Positions 17,578-40,816 of a stretch of DNA of 64,000 bases are shown in pieces (position 1 is the stretch's first letter; each line of letters begins with the position of its first letter). A program made the position numbers and the translations under genes. The stretch comes from Candidatus Aldehydirespirator sp. GTDB taxonomy: Bacteria; Actinomycetota; Acidimicrobiia; Acidimicrobiales; Aldehydirespiratoraceae. Where the stretch lies: contig OZ241903.1 of the NCBI GenBank assembly GCA_965203635.1, forward strand, positions 2,290,583 to 2,354,582. The letters run 5' to 3'. The notes below the pieces were generated by a model, which was not told the origin of the DNA, made no database searches, and saw only the letters and a program-made list of their open reading frames with translations.

Positions 17578-18444
17578 TCAGGCCAGTGAGGCGAAGACGA
17601 TGACGTTCTCCTCGTAGGTCCTCACGCCGAAATCGAAGTCGCCGCCGCAGGTGACCAGCCTGAGCGTCGGCTGTTCGGTGGGTCCGTAGACCGCGTCGGT
17701 GGGGAATTCGTCCTTGTCGTGGCTCTCCAGGAAGTCGACCACGTAGCTGACGGTCGATCCGTCCACCCGGTCGACGTGGATCTCGTCGCCGGCCTTCATG
17801 TACCGCAAGTCGAAGAACACGGCCGGACCTTCCTCCTGGGAGTCCACATGGCCGAGAATCACGGCCGGTCCAGTCTCGCCCGGTTCGGGACCGCCCAGCC
17901 ACCAGCCCGCCTCGTCGGGGTTCTCCGGTATCTCGATCGATCCGTCCTCTTGAAGGCCGAGGGGGATGATCGAGGCCTCCACGCCGAGCCTCGGGATGCG
18001 GATGACGGCGGGGTTGGGCGCCTGCATCCGGGCGTCGTTGACCGCGTCGAGGCTCAAGTGGCCCGCCAGCGGCGAGTAGTCCCACGACGTCCCGGCGGCG
18101 TCGGTGACCGTCGTGGCGGGGGCGAGGGCGGGCTCGGCAACCGAGGCCGCCGGCTCCACCGCGATGAGCGTCGTTCCTGCGCTGGTCGTCGCCGCTTCCG
18201 GGTCCGTCGTCGAGTTCTCCGTCGCCACTGCCGGTGCCTCTGTTGCGGCCGTCGGTGTCGATTCTGGAGCGGCTGTGGCCGGCGGGTCGGCGGCGGTGTC
18301 GCTCGAGGTTGCCGGCGTGGAACTGGCGGGCGCCGGAACCACCACCCGGGCAGGGTCGGAGCTGCAGGACGCGACTGCGGCAGCGGCGATGAGAGCCGCT
18401 GCCGCAGTCCGCAGTCTTGCCGCTGAGGGCCTGGTGTTCGCCAT
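17578..18444 (-). CDS. sortase, class F-like, with lipoprotein-type N-terminus
   Basis: AVILGHVDS (His), LRLVTCGG (Cys) and a C-terminal Arg region. N-terminal AAVASCSS lipobox and a Pro/Thr/Ala-rich linker. Last gene of the minus-strand surface-protein cluster. Confidence 0.85.
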   Translation of the reverse strand: MANTRPSAARLRTAAAALIAAAAVASCSSDPARVVVPAPASSTPATSSDTAADPPATAAPESTPTAATEAPAVATENSTTDPEAATTSAGTTLIAVEPAASVAEPALAPATTVTDAAGTSWDYSPLAGHLSLDAVNDARMQAPNPAVIRIPRLGVEASIIPLGLQEDGSIEIPENPDEAGWWLGGPEPGETGPAVILGHVDSQEEGPAVFFDLRYMKAGDEIHVDRVDGSTVSYVVDFLESHDKDEFPTDAVYGPTEQPTLRLVTCGGDFDFGVRTYEENVIVFASLA

Positions 18445-18475
18445 GAACTCCCGCCCCTCGCGGGTTGGTTGTCTG

Positions 18476-19087
18476 TTAGGCGTGACGCCGGGTGACGAGC
18501 GCAGCCCCGCCGAGCAGGGTCACCGCGGCGATGGTGGCGGCCAGCGGCACGGCGACGCTGTTGCCGTCGGATCCGGCCATGCCGCCGAAGCCCGTCTCGG
18601 CTGCACCCTCGGGAGCCATGTCGTCGCCCATGTCGTCGCCCATGTCGTCGCCCATGTCCTCCGCGATGAAGAGCACTGGAGCAGCGCTGTCCTCAGTGAC
18701 GGCGACATCGCCCGCGCCGAACGCGAAGTTCGCCGGGACATCGTGGGTGATATCGACCGTGAAGGTGCCATCAGCGCCCACCGTGATGGGCGCGCCGAGG
18801 GGTGCGAGGATGCAGTCGGCCTGACCCATGCCCTCCAAAGCGGCCACTATCGCGTCGGTTGACGACGCGGTCGTGAGCTGCTCGCCGGGGACGGTGCAGG
18901 GCACAATGAAGACGGTCAGGCCTGCACTCCAGCCCGATCCGGTGAGCGTGAAGGTGTGGGTCCCCGGTCCGTCCACGGCCGGCGGGTCTGCTGTGAGCAA
19001 CGGCCCGTCCTGAGCCGAGGCCTGGCTGGTCAGCACAAACAGGGCCAACAGGCTGGCCACGGCTGTCAGTGCCACGATTCTCTTCAT
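18476..19087 (-). CDS. secreted surface protein, paralog 1 (predicted sortase substrate)
   Basis: Signal peptide MKRIVALTAVASLLALFVLTSQASAQ and a ~110-aa two-Cys domain (TLTGSGWSAGLTVFIVPC). (DDMG)n stalk, then AAETG-FGGMAGSDGNSVAVP-TM helix-RRHA. Confidence 0.85.
   Translation of the reverse strand: MKRIVALTAVASLLALFVLTSQASAQDGPLLTADPPAVDGPGTHTFTLTGSGWSAGLTVFIVPCTVPGEQLTTASSTDAIVAALEGMGQADCILAPLGAPITVGADGTFTVDITHDVPANFAFGAGDVAVTEDSAAPVLFIAEDMGDDMGDDMGDDMAPEGAAETGFGGMAGSDGNSVAVPLAATIAAVTLLGGAALVTRRHA
18617..18664. repeat. 12-bp tandem repeat encoding (DDMG)n stalk of paralog 1
   Basis: CATGTCGTCGCC x3 plus a degenerate fourth unit. Confidence 0.85.
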
Positions 19088-19135
19088 GTGTTGTGTCCTT
19101 TCGCGGATCCAGCAGATCTACTGCGAGTGCGGCCG

Positions 19136-19141
19136 AGTATA
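19136..19141 (-). promoter_or_regulatory. candidate -10 box (TATACT) for paralog 1
   Basis: CTGAGCATGGGTATACT is conserved upstream of both paralog 1 and paralog 2, about 50 nt before each ATG. No convincing -35. Confidence 0.35.
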
Positions 19142-19174
19142 CCCATGCTCAGACGGCCGGTGTGGGGACGTAAC

Positions 19175-19247
19175 GCGACTGCGGCAGCGACAATGATGCC
19201 GCTGCCGCAGTCCGCAGTCTCTCCGCCTAGGGCCTGGCGTCCGTCAT
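19175..19247 (-). pseudogene. fossil 5' end of the sortase gene (copy A)
   Basis: Aligns with sortase codons 1-25 (18371-18444). Reads ATG ACG GAC GCC AGG CCC TAG, with TAG where the sortase has TCA. Contains the same CTGCGGCAGCG...CGCTGCCGCAG hairpin. Confidence 0.55.
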
Positions 19248-19278
19248 GAACCCCGGCCCCGAGCGGGCTGGTATTTCG

Positions 19279-19869
19279 TCAGGCTTGGCGTCGGGAGACC
19301 AGCACGGCCCCGCCGAGCAGGGTCACCGCGGCGATGGTGGCGGCCAGCGGCACGGCGACGCTGTTGCCGTCGGATCCGGCCATGCCGCCGAAGCCCGTCT
19401 CGGCTGCACCCTCGGGAGCCATGTCGTCACCCATGTCGTCGCCCATGTCGTCCATCGGCGCACCGATGAACACCGGCGCGGCGCCAGACTCTGTCTGTGC
19501 AGCATCGCCGGCAACCCAGACGAAGTTCTGTCCGACTGTCGCCGAGACCGTGGCGCTGAAGGTGCCGTCGGCGCCGACTACCGCGGGCGTCAGGCTGCCG
19601 AGATCGCAATCGGTCTGGCCGATTCGCCCAATGGCCTCCGCGGCGTTCTCAGGGGTCATCGGGTCGCCGGGCGCGGTGCACGGCAGCACGAACAGCGCAA
19701 GACCGGCAGTGAACCCGGATCCGCTGACGGTGAAGGTGTAGTCGCCCTCGGCCGGCACGTAGGCGGGGTCCGCCGTCAGGGACGGCCCGCCCTGAGCATG
19801 GGCCTGGCTCGTCAGCACGAGCAGGGCCAGCATGCTCACTGCGGCCGTGAGTGCCATGATTCTCTTCAT
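19279..19869 (-). CDS. secreted surface protein, paralog 2 (predicted sortase substrate)
   Basis: MKRIMALTAAVSMLALLVLTSQAHAQ, then the same two-Cys domain and DDMGDDMGDDM stalk. AAETG-FGGMAGSDGNSVAVP-TM-RRQA. Confidence 0.85.
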   Translation of the reverse strand: MKRIMALTAAVSMLALLVLTSQAHAQGGPSLTADPAYVPAEGDYTFTVSGSGFTAGLALFVLPCTAPGDPMTPENAAEAIGRIGQTDCDLGSLTPAVVGADGTFSATVSATVGQNFVWVAGDAAQTESGAAPVFIGAPMDDMGDDMGDDMAPEGAAETGFGGMAGSDGNSVAVPLAATIAAVTLLGGAVLVSRRQA

Positions 19870-19922
19870 CTGTGTTCCGTCCTTTCGCGGACTCGGCGGA
19901 AGGTCTCCCGCATGTGCGTGAG

Positions 19923-19928
19923 AGTATA
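19923..19928 (-). promoter_or_regulatory. candidate -10 box (TATACT) for paralog 2
   Basis: Same conserved CTGAGCATGGGTATACT block as upstream of paralog 1. Confidence 0.35.
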
Positions 19929-19960
19929 CCCATGCTCAGGCGGCGGATAATGCAGGTAGC

Positions 19961-20034
19961 GCGACTGCGGCAGCGGCCACTAGTGCCGCTGCCGCAGTCC
20001 GCAGTCTCTCCGCCTAGGGCTTGGTGTCCGTCAC
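19961..20034 (-). pseudogene. fossil 5' end of the sortase gene (copy B)
   Basis: GTG ACG GAC ACC AAG CCC TAG. It has the same premature TAG at codon 7 as copy A. A 13-bp perfect hairpin stem lies at 19965-19997. Confidence 0.55.
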
Positions 20035-20065
20035 GAACTCCTGCCCCGGGCGGGCTGGTATTTCG

Positions 20066-21088
20066 TTAGGCGTTGCGTCGGGAGACCAGTACGGCGCCGC
20101 CGAGCAGCGTCACTGCGGCGATGGTGGCGGCCAGCGGGACGGCCAGGCTGTTGCCGTCGGATCCGGCTGTGCCGCCGAAGCCCGTAGCAGCTCCGCCCTC
20201 GGGAACCATGTCGTCACCCATGTCCTCGACCATGTCGTCGTCGGCCATGTCGTCGGTCATGTCGTCGGTCATGTCGTCGGTCATGTCGTCGTCGGTCATG
20301 TCGTCGGTCATGTCGTCGTCGGTCATGTCGTCGGTCATGTCGTCGTCGGCCATGTCGTCAGTCATGTCGTCGTCGGCCATGTCGTCGTCGGCCACGTCCT
20401 CTCCTTCAGCGGGGGCCTCTTCCTCGGCAGGAGCCTCTTCCTCGGCAGGAGCCTCTTCCTCGGCAGGAGCCTCTTCCTCGGCGGGGGCCTCTTCCTCGGC
20501 GGGGGCCTCTTCCTCGGCGGGCGCTTCTTCTTCGGCCGGTGCTTCTTCTTCAGCGGGCGCTTCTTCTTCGGCCGGTGCTTCTTCTTCAGCGGGAGCTTCT
20601 TCTTCGGCCGGTGCTTCTTCTTCAGCGGGGGCCTCTTCCTCGGCAGGAGCCTCCTCTTCGGCCGGTGCTTCCTCTTCGACCATCGGCTCTCCGACCTTGA
20701 TGACGGCAGTGGCGCCCGACTGGGGAGCCACGGTGAACACCAATATCACGAGCCCTTCGGCCGGAACGTCGACGGTTATCGACGTCGAGAATGACCCTCC
20801 CGGAGCTGAGATCGTTGAGCCCATGTCCGTCAAGAGGTTGGGGCAGTTGGTGGTGGTCGCCGTTTGATCGATAACGTCGGGCACGACGCCTCCGAAGCCA
20901 GTGCACGCGGTGATCGCCGGGTTTGCTGGGAAGCCGCTTCCAGAGACCGTGACCGTGTGGGTGCCTGCTGAGCTGACATACTCCGGGTCTATCGTCACCG
21001 TCTGCACCGATTGCGCGCTCGCCTGGGTTGTCAGCGCGAACAGGGCCAACAGGCTCACTGTGGCCGTCAGTGCCATGATCTTCTTCAT
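20066..21088 (-). CDS. secreted surface protein, paralog 3, with expanded acidic repeat stalk (predicted sortase substrate)
   Basis: Start set at internal ATG 21088 (MKKIMALTATVSLLALFALTTQASAQ) by homology with paralogs 1 and 2. About 15 EEEAPA units, then a long DDM(T/A/G) tract, then GAATG-FGGTAGSDGNSLAVP-TM-RRNA. Confidence 0.85.
   Translation of the reverse strand: MKKIMALTATVSLLALFALTTQASAQSVQTVTIDPEYVSSAGTHTVTVSGSGFPANPAITACTGFGGVVPDVIDQTATTTNCPNLLTDMGSTISAPGGSFSTSITVDVPAEGLVILVFTVAPQSGATAVIKVGEPMVEEEAPAEEEAPAEEEAPAEEEAPAEEEAPAEEEAPAEEEAPAEEEAPAEEEAPAEEEAPAEEEAPAEEEAPAEEEAPAEEEAPAEEEAPAEGEDVADDDMADDDMTDDMADDDMTDDMTDDDMTDDMTDDDMTDDMTDDMTDDMADDDMVEDMGDDMVPEGGAATGFGGTAGSDGNSLAVPLAATIAAVTLLGGAVLVSRRNA
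20207..20400. repeat. 12/15-bp tandem repeats encoding the Asp/Met-rich tract (DDMT/DDDMT/DDMA)
   Basis: Runs of CATGTCGTCGGT / CATGTCGTCGTCGGT on the plus strand. Confidence 0.9.
20404..20680. repeat. 18-bp tandem repeat, about 15 units, encoding (EEEAPA)n
   Basis: GGCCTCTTCCTCGGCRGG / GCTTCTTCTTCGGCCGGT variants repeated head to tail. Confidence 0.9.
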
Positions 21089-21175
21089 CTGAGCTGTCCT
21101 TTCGTGGAGCCGGCAACTCTGTGCCAGCACCGTCACTTGGGAGGAGGATACACATCGGATGGGAGCCGGGTCCAC

Positions 21176-21760
21176 CAGCCCGATCCCAGCCGGGACGCGA
21201 CGGAGCCCCGAGTAGCCTCCCGGCTTTCGCCGCTCAACTTCTCGGGGCCCCGATTGCGCCTATCCACCGACCGCCTAATCCCGTCGGATTCTGCGGTGCT
21301 CCGGGACACATCCCCGTATCCGGTTCAGTGCCCTGACCCCCGCCCCGGACGGCTCCGTGGCGTTGGCCTGAATCACCCGGCGGTACCCGTCGGCACCTCC
21401 TGAGACTCCGGGTTCGCCCTCTCTCCGTCGGGATCGGACTCGACCCGGTGCCTCGGCGACACCCTCACTTTGAGGCTGGTTCCGGTGACTCCCTCGCTCA
21501 CCCGGCGGTGTGCTCGGTTGTCGCCGGGCCTCCCGGCGAGGTGACCCTCCTCCGACCTTGCTGTCACCCTCCCCCGTCGGGGATTCCTACCGCTAGCTCG
21601 GAGGAGAACCTCCGTGTCCCCGGCTGACCCACCGGCTCCTGGGAACCGGTCTGGCTGGCTGGGTGTCCTCTGCGGACCGCTCCATCGACTCCGCTCCCGC
21701 TGTCTCCGGCCGAGGCCCTCGACTGCTGGTCCGGTGTCTCCGTCGCTGCTCACTTCGGAC
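21176..21760 (-). other. unassigned structured non-coding region (candidate long 5' leader or ncRNA, minus strand)
   Basis: No credible ORF. The minus strand is purine-rich with many local hairpins, for example CGGAGG-UUCU-CCUCCG, UCCCC-GACG-GGGGA, GGUGAC..GUCACC and CCGGG-AGG-CCCGG. It lies downstream of a near-consensus promoter. Confidence 0.35.
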
Positions 21761-21767
21761 GCTGGGC

Positions 21768-21847
21768 ATCTTGGGGGGTTGCCAGCGGGTTGTCAACCCC
21801 AAAACGCGAAATCCCCATCGAAATCCCGAGCATTTTCGAGAAATCCC
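21768..21847 (-). promoter_or_regulatory. candidate sigma-70-type promoter with three upstream direct repeats
   Basis: On the minus strand: TTGACA (21796-21791), a 17-nt spacer, then CAAGAT (21773-21768). GGGATTTC occurs three times (plus-strand GAAATCCC at 21808, 21820, 21840) just upstream. The -35 sits in the palindrome GGGTTG-T-CAACCC. Confidence 0.45.
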
Positions 21848-21916
21848 CAAGCGGCGCCCAGTTATGCACAGTGCGATCACAGTCTGGTGCCGATTCGAGG
21901 GCTCCGAACGGCCCGA

Positions 21917-22678
21917 TCAGGCCTCCCAGTGACCCCGATCGATCATCACCCGGCGCAATACCGAGGGCCTGTCGGTCATGATCCCGTCCACCCCCATGTC
22001 GAGTAGGCGGTGCATCTCAGCCGGCTCGTCGATGGTCCAGACATGAACCGCGACGCCGTGGCGATGGGCCGCGGCCAGCATCCCGGGCCGCACCAGCGTC
22101 AGGCCCTTGGAGCGGACCGGCACCTGGGCGGCGTGGAAGTCGAAGGACGCCGGCGCACCGAGCCGGGCCGAGGCGGCCAGCAGCCGGGCGATGCCGCGGG
22201 GGCCGGCTCCGACGCACAGCGCTGCCCCGATCTGGTCGCGAACCTGCCGGGTGCGCCGGTCCGAGAACGAGCACACGCACACCCGCTCGACCGCGTCGGT
22301 GCGTCGGAGGACCTCCACCAGCGGCCCGACCGCGGCGTCGCTCTTGGGATCGATGTTGATCCTGGTGTCGGGCAGTTCCTCGAGGAGCTCGTCGAGGAGC
22401 ATGATCGGGTCGGTGCCGGCCACCCGGGCTTGCCGGACCTGGCTCCAGTCAAGGTCGCTGACGACGCCTCGGCCGTCGGTGACCCGGTCCAGCGAGTCGT
22501 CGTGGAAGGCCACCGCGACCCCGTCGGCGGTGGCGTGGACATCGGTCTCCACATGGGTGTAGCCCAGGTCCACGGCGTGGCGGAAGGCCCGCAGCGTGTT
22601 CTCGGGGAACTCCTCGGCCCCGCCCCGGTGGGCGAAGGCGATGGGCCCGTCCACGTCCAGGTACGGGTGGCGCTGCAC
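21917..22678 (-). CDS. glycerophosphodiester phosphodiesterase family protein
   Basis: IAFAHRGG..FPENT..HVETDVH..HDDSLDR GDPD motifs. The start is uncertain: GTG 22678 is preferred, ATG 22747 is possible, and the track ORF start 22879 overlaps pyk. Confidence 0.8.
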   Translation of the reverse strand: MQRHPYLDVDGPIAFAHRGGAEEFPENTLRAFRHAVDLGYTHVETDVHATADGVAVAFHDDSLDRVTDGRGVVSDLDWSQVRQARVAGTDPIMLLDELLEELPDTRINIDPKSDAAVGPLVEVLRRTDAVERVCVCSFSDRRTRQVRDQIGAALCVGAGPRGIARLLAASARLGAPASFDFHAAQVPVRSKGLTLVRPGMLAAAHRHGVAVHVWTIDEPAEMHRLLDMGVDGIMTDRPSVLRRVMIDRGHWEA

Positions 22679-22745
22679 GAGCGAACCGTAGCCGCAGCCG
22701 AGAGTTATCCACAGGTTGACCGCACTCGGCGGTAGCGTTGTGGGC

Positions 22746-40108: not shown

Positions 40109-40122
40109 GAGCGAGGGCCACC

Positions 40123-40770
40123 GTGGCTACGCCGATGTTCGCGCTCCAGTCGGTGCTGCTCCCCGGATCGCCGCTGCCGCTGCACGTCTTCGAGCCTCGC
40201 TATGTGGCCATGCTCGACACCGTCATCTCGACGGACGCCGAAATGGGCGTCGTGCTGATCGAGCGGGGCCGCGAGGTCGGGGGCGGGGATGTGCGGTGCG
40301 ATGTGGCCACCATGGCCCGCGTCGTGGAGGCCCGGGAGTTGGCCGACGGCAGGCTGCTGGTGATGGCGCTGGGAGTCCGTCGGATCCGGGTGCGGCGGTG
40401 GCTGCCCGACGATCCATACCCCTGCGCCGAGACTGAGGACTGGCCAGATGAGCCCGAAGGTGAGTCGCCGCCGAGCGGCGAGCAGCTGCGGCAGTTGGGC
40501 GCACTGGTCTCGGAGGCACGCAGCCTGGCCCGGCGTCTCGAGATCGCGCCCGGGCCGCAGCACGAGGCAGCTGAAGTGGTTCCCGTGGATGTGGGCCGCG
40601 ACGCTTCCCAGGCCTCCTACCGGGCCGCGGCTCTTGCTCCACTCGGTCCACTCGACCGCTACGAGGTGCTCTGCACGCCGGGCGCCGGCCGGCGGCTCTC
40701 CGTCGCGCACCGTGCGGTGGCCGATGCCGTCGACCTGTTGAGAGCCCGGATCGAGCTGGGCGGCGGGTAG
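40123..40770 (+). CDS. LON N-terminal (substrate-binding) domain protein
   Basis: MFALQSVLLPGSPLPLHVFEPRY..GVVLI. Confidence 0.8.
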   Translation: MATPMFALQSVLLPGSPLPLHVFEPRYVAMLDTVISTDAEMGVVLIERGREVGGGDVRCDVATMARVVEARELADGRLLVMALGVRRIRVRRWLPDDPYPCAETEDWPDEPEGESPPSGEQLRQLGALVSEARSLARRLEIAPGPQHEAAEVVPVDVGRDASQASYRAAALAPLGPLDRYEVLCTPGAGRRLSVAHRAVADAVDLLRARIELGGG

Positions 40771-40816
40771 CGTGAGGGCCTGAGTGGCCCGTGAGCGAAG
40801 CGAACAAGAGCGGGCA
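40771..40816 (-). repeat. MIRU-like dispersed repeat, copy 3 (core only, inverted orientation)
   Basis: The reverse complement reads CCCGCTCTTGTTCGCTTCGCTCACGGGCCACTCAGGCCCTCAC. Confidence 0.75.

Follow-up and report, generated by a model that had tools for sequence, protein, structure and literature searches.

A probable gene for a conserved, structured non-coding RNA of a new family in marine and sponge-associated Acidimicrobiales

Positions 21089-21916 of a 64,000-nucleotide stretch of a Candidatus Aldehydirespirator genome (contig OZ241903.1; the whole stretch is called the window below) form a gap between protein genes that contains a conserved, single-copy, non-coding element, which has a strand-specific structure, is conserved together with its promoter and is independent of the gene downstream. 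We consider it likely that the gap holds an independent gene for a structured non-coding RNA (ncRNA), and that this RNA belongs to a new family. The gap is bounded exactly by two minus-strand genes, one for a glycerophosphodiester phosphodiesterase (GDPD) and the other for a secreted acidic-repeat protein, hereafter the surface protein. A first-pass annotation of this DNA had left two possibilities side by side, an independent ncRNA and a long regulatory leader of the surface-protein gene. The former is borne out by the RNA's own conserved promoter, a fold supported by covariation and the change of downstream neighbour among relatives, and the latter is contradicted by differing downstream genes, separate -10 elements, an insertion in one related locus (L006) and the gene order of outgroups.

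Alignment of the gap with its relatives revealed a conserved block of ~690 nt, reaching from ~100 bp upstream of the -35 hexamer to ~21190; the sequence between this block and the start codon of the surface-protein gene is not conserved. The window carries the long form of the RNA (~571 nt), and a short form was collected from a single, more distant locus, L055. With a 21-mer bait taken from the block, 25 GTDB species representatives were found, each having one full-length copy of 81-96% identity. All 25 are Acidimicrobiia ("Ca. Aldehydirespirator" and metagenome-assembled genomes of Acidimicrobiaceae), several of them from sponges, and the carriers can be described as uncultivated marine and sponge-associated Acidimicrobiales of at least 25 species. 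A second, independent bait gave 20 matches among JGI metagenome contigs, of which five are true members, all from Acidimicrobiales, and 15 are chance matches rejected by a profile search. Nucleotide identity amounts to 82-97% for the RNA (at least 30 loci), 78-95% for the promoter, 81-97% for the PK and GDPD genes and 70-83% for the surface-protein gene, and the spacer 3′ of the RNA is usually not alignable. The RNA is thus as conserved as the PK and GDPD genes, though no more than these, which points to purifying selection comparable to that acting on housekeeping genes. In the homologous regions of relatives not only the sequence but also the structure is conserved, and compensatory pairs were found. 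Note also that blastn against collections of 50,697 phages and 72,556 plasmids gave no match and that neither bait found anything in IMG/VR; as there are no matches to mobile or viral replicons and only one copy per genome, a phage- or plasmid-borne RNA element was rejected.

The evidence for selection at the RNA level comes from the alignment itself. A first pass with RNAalifold gave 163 pairs, with double changes of the compensatory kind at 15, and replacement of the poorly aligned 5′ domain by a fold common to 26 sequences led to a structure of 170 pairs. In this structure 97.6% of the paired cells are canonical, compared with 35-48% when the partners are slid by 1-3 columns. Double changes occur at 20 pairs (72 cells), compared with at most 10 pairs (at most 29 cells) in the slid controls, and none of 500 shuffles reached the observed level. 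G·U makes up 11.3% and A·C 0.9% of the paired cells; with G·U so far above A·C, the complementary strand could not form the structure, and the sense strand is thereby fixed. The minimum-free-energy z-score relative to shuffles is -5.1 for the minus strand and -3.2 for the plus strand. A de novo search for column covariation, aimed at long-range or pseudoknot pairs, was confounded by clade-specific substitutions and unusable. Regarding coding potential, the variable columns are spread over the three codon phases without any 3-nt periodicity (79, 92 and 84 of ~190 each), single-nucleotide indels are found at no fewer than 15 scattered sites, and the stop-free stretches differ between species. 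In this genome of ~69% G+C, the frame plot of third-position G+C (GC3) is sharp in both flanking genes and flat from ~21160 to ~21880. A protein-coding gene or small open reading frame (ORF) was rejected on the grounds of missing periodicity, scattered single-nucleotide indels and flat GC3, in agreement with the first-pass annotation, which had seen no protein-like ORF in the gap.

The conserved unit, including its promoter block, spans 21883-21190 on the minus strand, and begins with the following elements.

21861-21883, minus strand: upstream element ACTGTGATCGCACTGTGCATAAC, of the form CTGTG-N8-CTGTGCATAAC, at ~-100 to -123 from the predicted start
21847-21840, 21827-21820 and 21815-21808, minus strand: three direct GGGATTTC repeats, their starts 20 and 12 bp apart
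21768-21796, minus strand: promoter read from the sequence, with -35 TTGACA (21796-21791), a 17-nt spacer and -10 CAAGAT (21773-21768)

The motif TTGACA-N17-CAAGAT had been described in the first pass as a near-consensus promoter. It is present at 21796-21768 of the minus strand, and the description is accurate for the -35, which is perfect; the -10 agrees with TATAAT at only three of six positions, which lies below the threshold of the consensus scanner, and the window promoter was not called for this reason. Across 28 distinct relatives the -35 is invariant and the spacer constant in length with a variable sequence, and the -10 of long-form relatives reads either CAAGAT or CATGAT. The palindrome GGGTTG-T-CAACCC, in which the -35 was said to be embedded, exists in the window, but it is lacking in L001 and L016 and, not being conserved, is probably incidental. 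The three direct repeats proposed upstream of the promoter were confirmed as copies of GGGATTTC. They are interleaved with short A/T tracts in a roughly helical phasing, are invariant or nearly so in the 28 distinct relatives and are partly kept in L055. The 64-kb window contains five copies of this sequence (1.19 expected), three of which lie in the promoter block. We read the array as a putative activator-site or UP-like module. The upstream element is composed of a direct repeat, CTGTG-N8-CTGTG, followed by CATAAC; in the 28 distinct relatives its TGTG is invariant and (C/A)ATAAC nearly invariant, and L055 has the variant CTGGGTATAAC at the matching relative position. The element is a possible site for a regulator. 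In its appearance CTGTG-N8-CTGTGCATAAC resembles an array of half-sites and not a CRP-type palindrome.

The predicted 5′ end of the RNA is the G at 21760, 8 nt past the -10 and exactly the first base of domain 1, and the 3′ end was placed at ~21190, where conservation stops. The first pass had predicted an RNA of ~670 nt running into the start of the surface-protein gene, which is too long, since the conserved RNA ends at ~21190 and the start codon is at 21088. Its description of the RNA as G/A-rich with at least five GGAGG-like tracts was accurate: the composition of the RNA strand is G 0.41, A 0.20, C 0.29 and U 0.10, and there are seven GGAGG tracts. The parts of the predicted RNA are listed here in 5′ to 3′ order (pair numbers are those of the RNAalifold structure), after the RNA as a whole and before its recurrent hairpins.

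21190-21760, minus strand: structured ncRNA, long form, ~571 nt, delimited by promoter position and conservation
21665-21760, minus strand: domain 1, a ~96-nt irregular rod from +1, its fold recovered independently in 26 of 26 sequences
21370-21663, minus strand: central expansion, long form only, absent from L055, comprising the next four entries
21619-21663, minus strand: D2
21540-21613, minus strand: D3, with covariation at pairs 181-224, 183-222 and 190-215
21521-21539 and 21492-21517, minus strand: two hairpins, with covariation in hairpin 241-260
21370-21491, minus strand: D4, multibranch
21335-21368, 21304-21333 and 21265-21303, minus strand: three hairpin domains
21194-21260, minus strand: 3′ terminal hairpin, ~67 nt, 25 pairs, better conserved than any other module of the family
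21422-21583, 21278-21289, 21382-21397 and 21499-21510, minus strand: CC-GNCG-GG hairpins

In domain 1 the internal loops carry tandem G·A and the tip is UNCG-like (GGGC-CUCG-GCC); among the compensatory changes of this domain are CCG/CGG to CUG/CAG and GUC/GAC to GCU/AGC. Within the three hairpin domains at 21265-21368, double changes were seen in two sequences at pair 421-452, in ten at 422-451 and in four at 423-450. The hairpin at 21265-21303, which is kept in the short form, has a tandem A·G/G·A loop and a GNCG tip. Almost invariant across all long forms and nearly identical in L055, the 3′ terminal hairpin is interrupted by an A·A mismatch and a 3x3 internal loop (GAG/GGA) and ends in a GNRA tip, either GAAA or GCAA. 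Five conserved hairpins, four of them in the central expansion, are capped by CC-GNCG-GG, N varying among species, and the heptamer CCGNCGG occurs six times in the 572 nt of RNA compared with 1.9 times per kb in the window. GNCG does not belong to the standard classes of stable tetraloops (GNRA, UNCG), and its recurrence as a cap may mark a motif for protein recognition or tertiary contacts. At ~21420-21455 two foldings compete, a hairpin GGAU-UCGA-GUCC and a helix CCGGGU/ACCCGG.

More distant loci, fetched via their GDPD homologues, show which parts of the RNA form its core. L055, whose GDPD is 78% identical, has a short-form RNA of ~290 nt with a fold z-score of -7.2. The block upstream resembles that of the long form and includes GGGGATTTC repeats, and the promoter, TTGACA-17-CATAAT, matches the consensus at 11 of 12 positions and is called by the scanner. 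The profile matches L055 only over domain 1 (E 8e-07) and the last two hairpins (E 1.9e-24), and a different stretch of 43 nt stands in place of ~350 nt of the long form. Domain 1 is retained with a diverged apical sequence, and both the rod and the penultimate hairpin are kept by compensatory changes (tandem A·G/G·A to A-U/U-A, U·G to C-G). Just past the 3′ hairpin of L055 there is a further hairpin followed by U5. In L052 (GDPD 75%) a relic of ~90 nt is left, in which GGUCCGC... is fused to a hairpin and which has no promoter; the 3′ strand of its hairpin, GGCUACUCGGGGCUCCGUCGCG, is identical to that of the RNA family. In L053 and L054 (GDPD 65-69%) the distance from GDPD to the next gene is 52-256 nt, and nothing in between resembles the RNA. 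L052 and L053 keep the order GDPD, surface protein and sortase without the RNA, and in L054 GDPD is followed, again without the RNA, by an oxidoreductase/glycosyltransferase cluster. From these sequences the family consists of a core (the 5′ rod, the penultimate hairpin, the 3′ hairpin and the promoter) and a lineage-specific central expansion of ~350 nt, and the RNA has been lost in some sister lineages. Downstream of GDPD in L053 (6880-7150) we also observed ~120-nt tandem repeats (GCCGCCCCGGGTGGGTGAAGCAGCC...) that run into the next called gene.

The genes on both sides of the RNA, and the features that separate it from the surface-protein gene, are as follows.

21917-22690, minus strand: GDPD gene, upstream (Pfam PF03009, E 5.5e-46)
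21155-21189, minus strand: non-conserved spacer after the RNA, not alignable in most relatives and without a consistent terminator
21145-21154, minus strand: TGTGTATCCT, a -10-like element, window form of TGTGTATACT/ATGTGTATACT, ahead of the surface-protein ATG at 21088
20066-21088, minus strand: surface-protein gene, 340 aa, secreted, acidic repeats of the types (EEEAPA)n and (DDMT)n, membrane anchor at the C-terminus
19279-19869 and 18476-19087, minus strand: two paralogues of the surface protein, downstream of 20066-21088

Together, the genes for these three secreted paralogues and a sortase gene (PF04203) after them form an operon at 17578-21088 of the minus strand. The N-terminal domain of the surface-protein paralogues is Ig-like, paralogue 2 having a weak Pfam match to neocarzinostatin, and the family evolves fast (60-76% amino acid identity). 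Only 11 homologues of the surface protein are detectable among 5.8 billion proteins, and their contigs share the order GDPD, a gap of ~850-950 nt, surface proteins, sortase and gltDB.

This arrangement speaks for the view that the RNA is a cis-acting 5′ leader, i.e., a riboswitch or attenuator for the operon of surface proteins and sortase: the RNA directly precedes the surface-protein gene, in the same orientation, in the window as well as in roughly half the relatives, and no intrinsic terminator stands between them. We nevertheless regard a leader as extremely unlikely. A riboswitch is expected to precede a constant class of genes, but the class differs here, being either the surface-protein/sortase operon or, in at least eight relatives, a gene for a FAD-dependent oxidoreductase followed by one for a GT4 glycosyltransferase. 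A contiguous expression platform is likewise missing, as conservation ends ~100 nt before the ATG, no terminator-like hairpin is found and nothing of the kind overlaps the ribosome-binding site. Moreover, the downstream genes carry a conserved -10-like element of their own, TGTGTATACT or TACACT, 30-120 nt past the end of the RNA, and the surface-protein gene probably has a separate promoter in TGTGTATCCT. In every locus with the surface-protein operon (L001-L031), the motif ATGTGTATACT precedes the start codon of the surface-protein gene by 50-150 nt. In the oxidoreductase clade TACACT lies ~10 nt from the ATG, a spacing that suggests an almost leaderless mRNA. A natural experiment is provided by L006, where a 1.2-kb gene for an AAA_14/DUF4143 ATPase (853-2061), inserted on the opposite strand, lies after the RNA and ahead of the surface-protein gene, which shows that RNA and surface-protein gene can be separated; an extra gene of 317 aa is found at the same place in L003. 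On the other side, 2.4-3.3 kb separate GDPD from the unit in L010 and L012, and the promoter block stays with the RNA. The operon is also kept without the RNA in L052 and L053, as described above. The spacer after the RNA shows short tandem duplications, namely two copies of UCCCGGCU in the window (21161-21189), about 2.5 of CCCGGACCCTGCCGCGC in L007 and two of CAGGGCTCATGCC in L019, which suggests a slippage-prone end of the transcription unit.

These small duplications in the 3′ flank, and the fact that compared with outgroups the unit behaves as a ~700-bp insertion/deletion downstream of GDPD, would also suit an explanation without any RNA gene, be it a conserved DNA element, a decayed protein gene or the remnant of a mobile element. 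Such an explanation is scarcely credible, however, as the asymmetry of G·U and A·C and the compensatory changes point to selection on RNA, codon periodicity is absent and frameshifting indels are tolerated, the element is single-copy, without terminal repeats or phage, plasmid or viral matches, and the promoter is conserved in the matching orientation. If it is an RNA, the question arises whether it belongs to a described family. Rfam 15 (4227 models, including those for RNase P, tmRNA, signal recognition particle (SRP) RNA, 6S, OLE, GOLLD, ROOL, raiA, HEARO, group I/II introns and riboswitches) gave no match at the gathering score in the whole window, none at E<=10 in the 1.2 kb from 20900 to 22100, and none at E<=1 in the RNA region of five divergent members in a 49-kb search, in line with the earlier statement that RNase P, tmRNA, SRP, 6S and common riboswitches could not be recognised. 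The only Rfam signal, F6 (RF01791), appears when just ~120-170 nt around the 3′ hairpin are searched, and covers the model end-to-end (1-57), scoring 22.2 bits for 21199-21254 of the window and 25.3 bits for L055, the gathering score being 46 and the E-values (0.009-0.036) referring to small search spaces. The same model matches the reverse strand with 19-20 bits; since both strands score, the signal is mostly that of a GC-rich palindromic stem. With half of the gathering threshold, membership in F6 was rejected, and the match is a lead only. The RNA could still be a distant, 5′-extended small RNA of the F6/SfdS type, in which the 3′ hairpin would be a functional, possibly processed module that pairs through its loop. 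Both are from the phylum Actinomycetota, and the 56-nt core of the 3′ hairpin is equal in length and shares the AGCCCCG...CGGGGCU stem; this hairpin is the most conserved part of the RNA and survives in the L052 relic. F6 pairs with its targets through the hairpin loop (PMC8583896), and in Mycobacterium it is transcribed from a SigF promoter between fadA2 and fadE5 as 102 nt that are processed to a stable 58-nt hairpin (PMC8557902). None of this promoter, location and length is shared by the present RNA of Acidimicrobiales, which has a sigma-A-like promoter, ~571 nt, synteny with GDPD and its hairpin at the 3′ and not the 5′ end; its loop is a GNRA tetraloop and not a typical seed, and the longer searches (1.2 kb, 49 kb) gave nothing. 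We therefore hold an F6-type RNA to be very unlikely. Highly unlikely is an RNA polymerase-binding RNA like 6S or Ms1 that would buffer transcription in a lineage without recognisable 6S. Many Actinomycetota have no canonical 6S and use Ms1 instead (PMC9130861), and the present RNA resembles these in its stand-alone, presumably abundant nature, its strong-looking and heavily conserved promoter and the long irregular hairpin of domain 1. It differs in consisting of ~10 domains in series, and not of one rod with a central, open-promoter-like bubble, in being ~2-3 times larger and in lacking any match to the 6S models. The synteny of Ms1 with a HAD-IB hydrolase and an oxidoreductase, described in a study that does not cover Acidimicrobiia (PMC9130861), is absent from the neighbourhood of the RNA. 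As the RNA is missing in close outgroups, a global regulator of RNA polymerase is unlikely.

Other comparisons gave resemblance and not homology. OLE (RF01071) is similar in size (~600 nt), in its many helices, GNRA loops and G·A-rich internal loops, in being restricted to certain lineages and in probably being a ribonucleoprotein. There is no match to it in sequence or structure, however, and OLE belongs to Bacillota and is transcribed within an operon, whereas the RNA described here has its own promoter, no adjacent oapA-like gene, a narrower distribution and losses in sister lineages. GOLLD and ROOL likewise share the large size and an ornate, multi-domain fold, and self-association has been seen in them (PMC12286853). 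They differ in that the present RNA, whose place on the chromosome next to GDPD is fixed, has no Rfam match and is not linked to phages, prophages or tRNA clusters. Palindromic or self-similar loops in the predicted fold, e.g., the invariant UCGA, could in principle allow self-association here as well. The descriptive group of "ornate" RNAs, defined by >~500 nt, many covarying helices and conservation of unpaired nucleotides, is resembled in size (571 nt) and in the multi-helix fold with 20 covarying pairs, but the divergence is low, the centre is ambiguous and the unpaired columns are less conserved than the paired ones. The raiA motif is a structured ncRNA found in Actinomycetota, including Acidimicrobiia (PMC10861870), but it has ~200 nt, typically lies near raiA or comFC and gave no Rfam match here. 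Superficial likenesses to CR-I/CR-V of RNase P, the T-arm of tmRNA/tRNA and domain V of group II introns (GAGGGAGUC, ACAGAACCGGAUAC, UCGAGUCC) came without a model match or covarying pairing and were dropped. Full-text literature searches on the organism, on ncRNAs of Acidimicrobiia and on signature 16-mers found nothing relevant. Since no described family fits, the RNA is classed, by elimination, as a new family of large bacterial ncRNAs. The first pass had also described the 0.8-kb gap as the window's largest non-coding one; a crude, GC3-based gene call, too unreliable to decide this, leaves a second stretch of ~686 nt without a convincing ORF at 40109-40794, which likewise has no Rfam match.

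As to how such an independent RNA gene would work, we propose that the sigma-A-type promoter, together with the sites in the ~100 bp upstream of it, starts transcription at ~21760, that the transcript of ~571 nt would fold into a 96-nt 5′ rod, central hairpin and multibranch domains and a 67-nt 3′ hairpin, and that it would end at ~21190, ahead of the separate promoter of the surface-protein gene. The RNA might then act in trans, either as the scaffold of a ribonucleoprotein or by titrating a protein. This last step is the weakest of our inferences, and we offer it tentatively; the guess is prompted by the GNRA loop, by internal loops rich in G·A and by the repeated occurrence of CC-GNCG-GG hairpins. 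Alternatively, the RNA might represent a new class of large functional RNAs with an activity of their own, a ribozyme or a self-assembling multimeric architecture. The core (5′ rod and 3′ hairpin) would then be the active or assembly module, and contacts, either tertiary or between molecules, would be made by the 350-nt expansion through its CC-GNCG-GG hairpins, its GNRA loops and the palindromic UCGA loop. We think this unlikely, although a catalytic or self-assembling role, if true, would be the most interesting outcome.

Several observations weigh against an independent, trans-acting structured RNA and should be kept in mind. The GNCG hairpins are absent from the short form and lie in the dispensable expansion, and hence do not reflect a core function; no gene for a partner protein is consistently adjacent to the RNA; and the RNA is dispensable in the related lineages L052, L053 and L054. 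As regards the transcript, its start, its 3′ end and its abundance are all predictions, the -10 of the window is weak (measured by the E. coli consensus), and a terminator search found no consistent hairpin 3′ of the long form. As regards the fold, the aligned sequences are close (at least 81% identity) and fall into few clades, so that many of the double changes are single evolutionary events, and the slid and shuffled controls favour a structure derived from its own alignment. The share of invariant columns is higher among the paired (224 of 338) than among the unpaired positions (87 of 212), and much of the helix support is thus conservation and not covariation. The central part is ambiguous, single-sequence folds giving an alternative long-range GACAC/GUGUC pairing.

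To our knowledge, conserved bacterial RNAs of more than ~500 nt are very few, namely the rRNAs, RNase P, tmRNA, group I/II introns, OLE, GOLLD and ROOL, and each large RNA that we know of turned out to be catalytic or an unexpected RNA machine or assembly. The RNA described here, though phylogenetically narrow and a predicted transcript, would add to this very short list and, as far as the searched libraries show, is the first large-RNA candidate from Acidimicrobiia. The members of this class of Actinomycetota are marine or live as symbionts of sponges, and most of them are uncultivated. With its strong conservation, the promoter block offers a route to its regulator and to the conditions of its expression. 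Finally, the long form, the short form that defines the core, the relic and the clean absences amount to a natural dissection of the RNA, which makes hypotheses on its structure and function directly testable.

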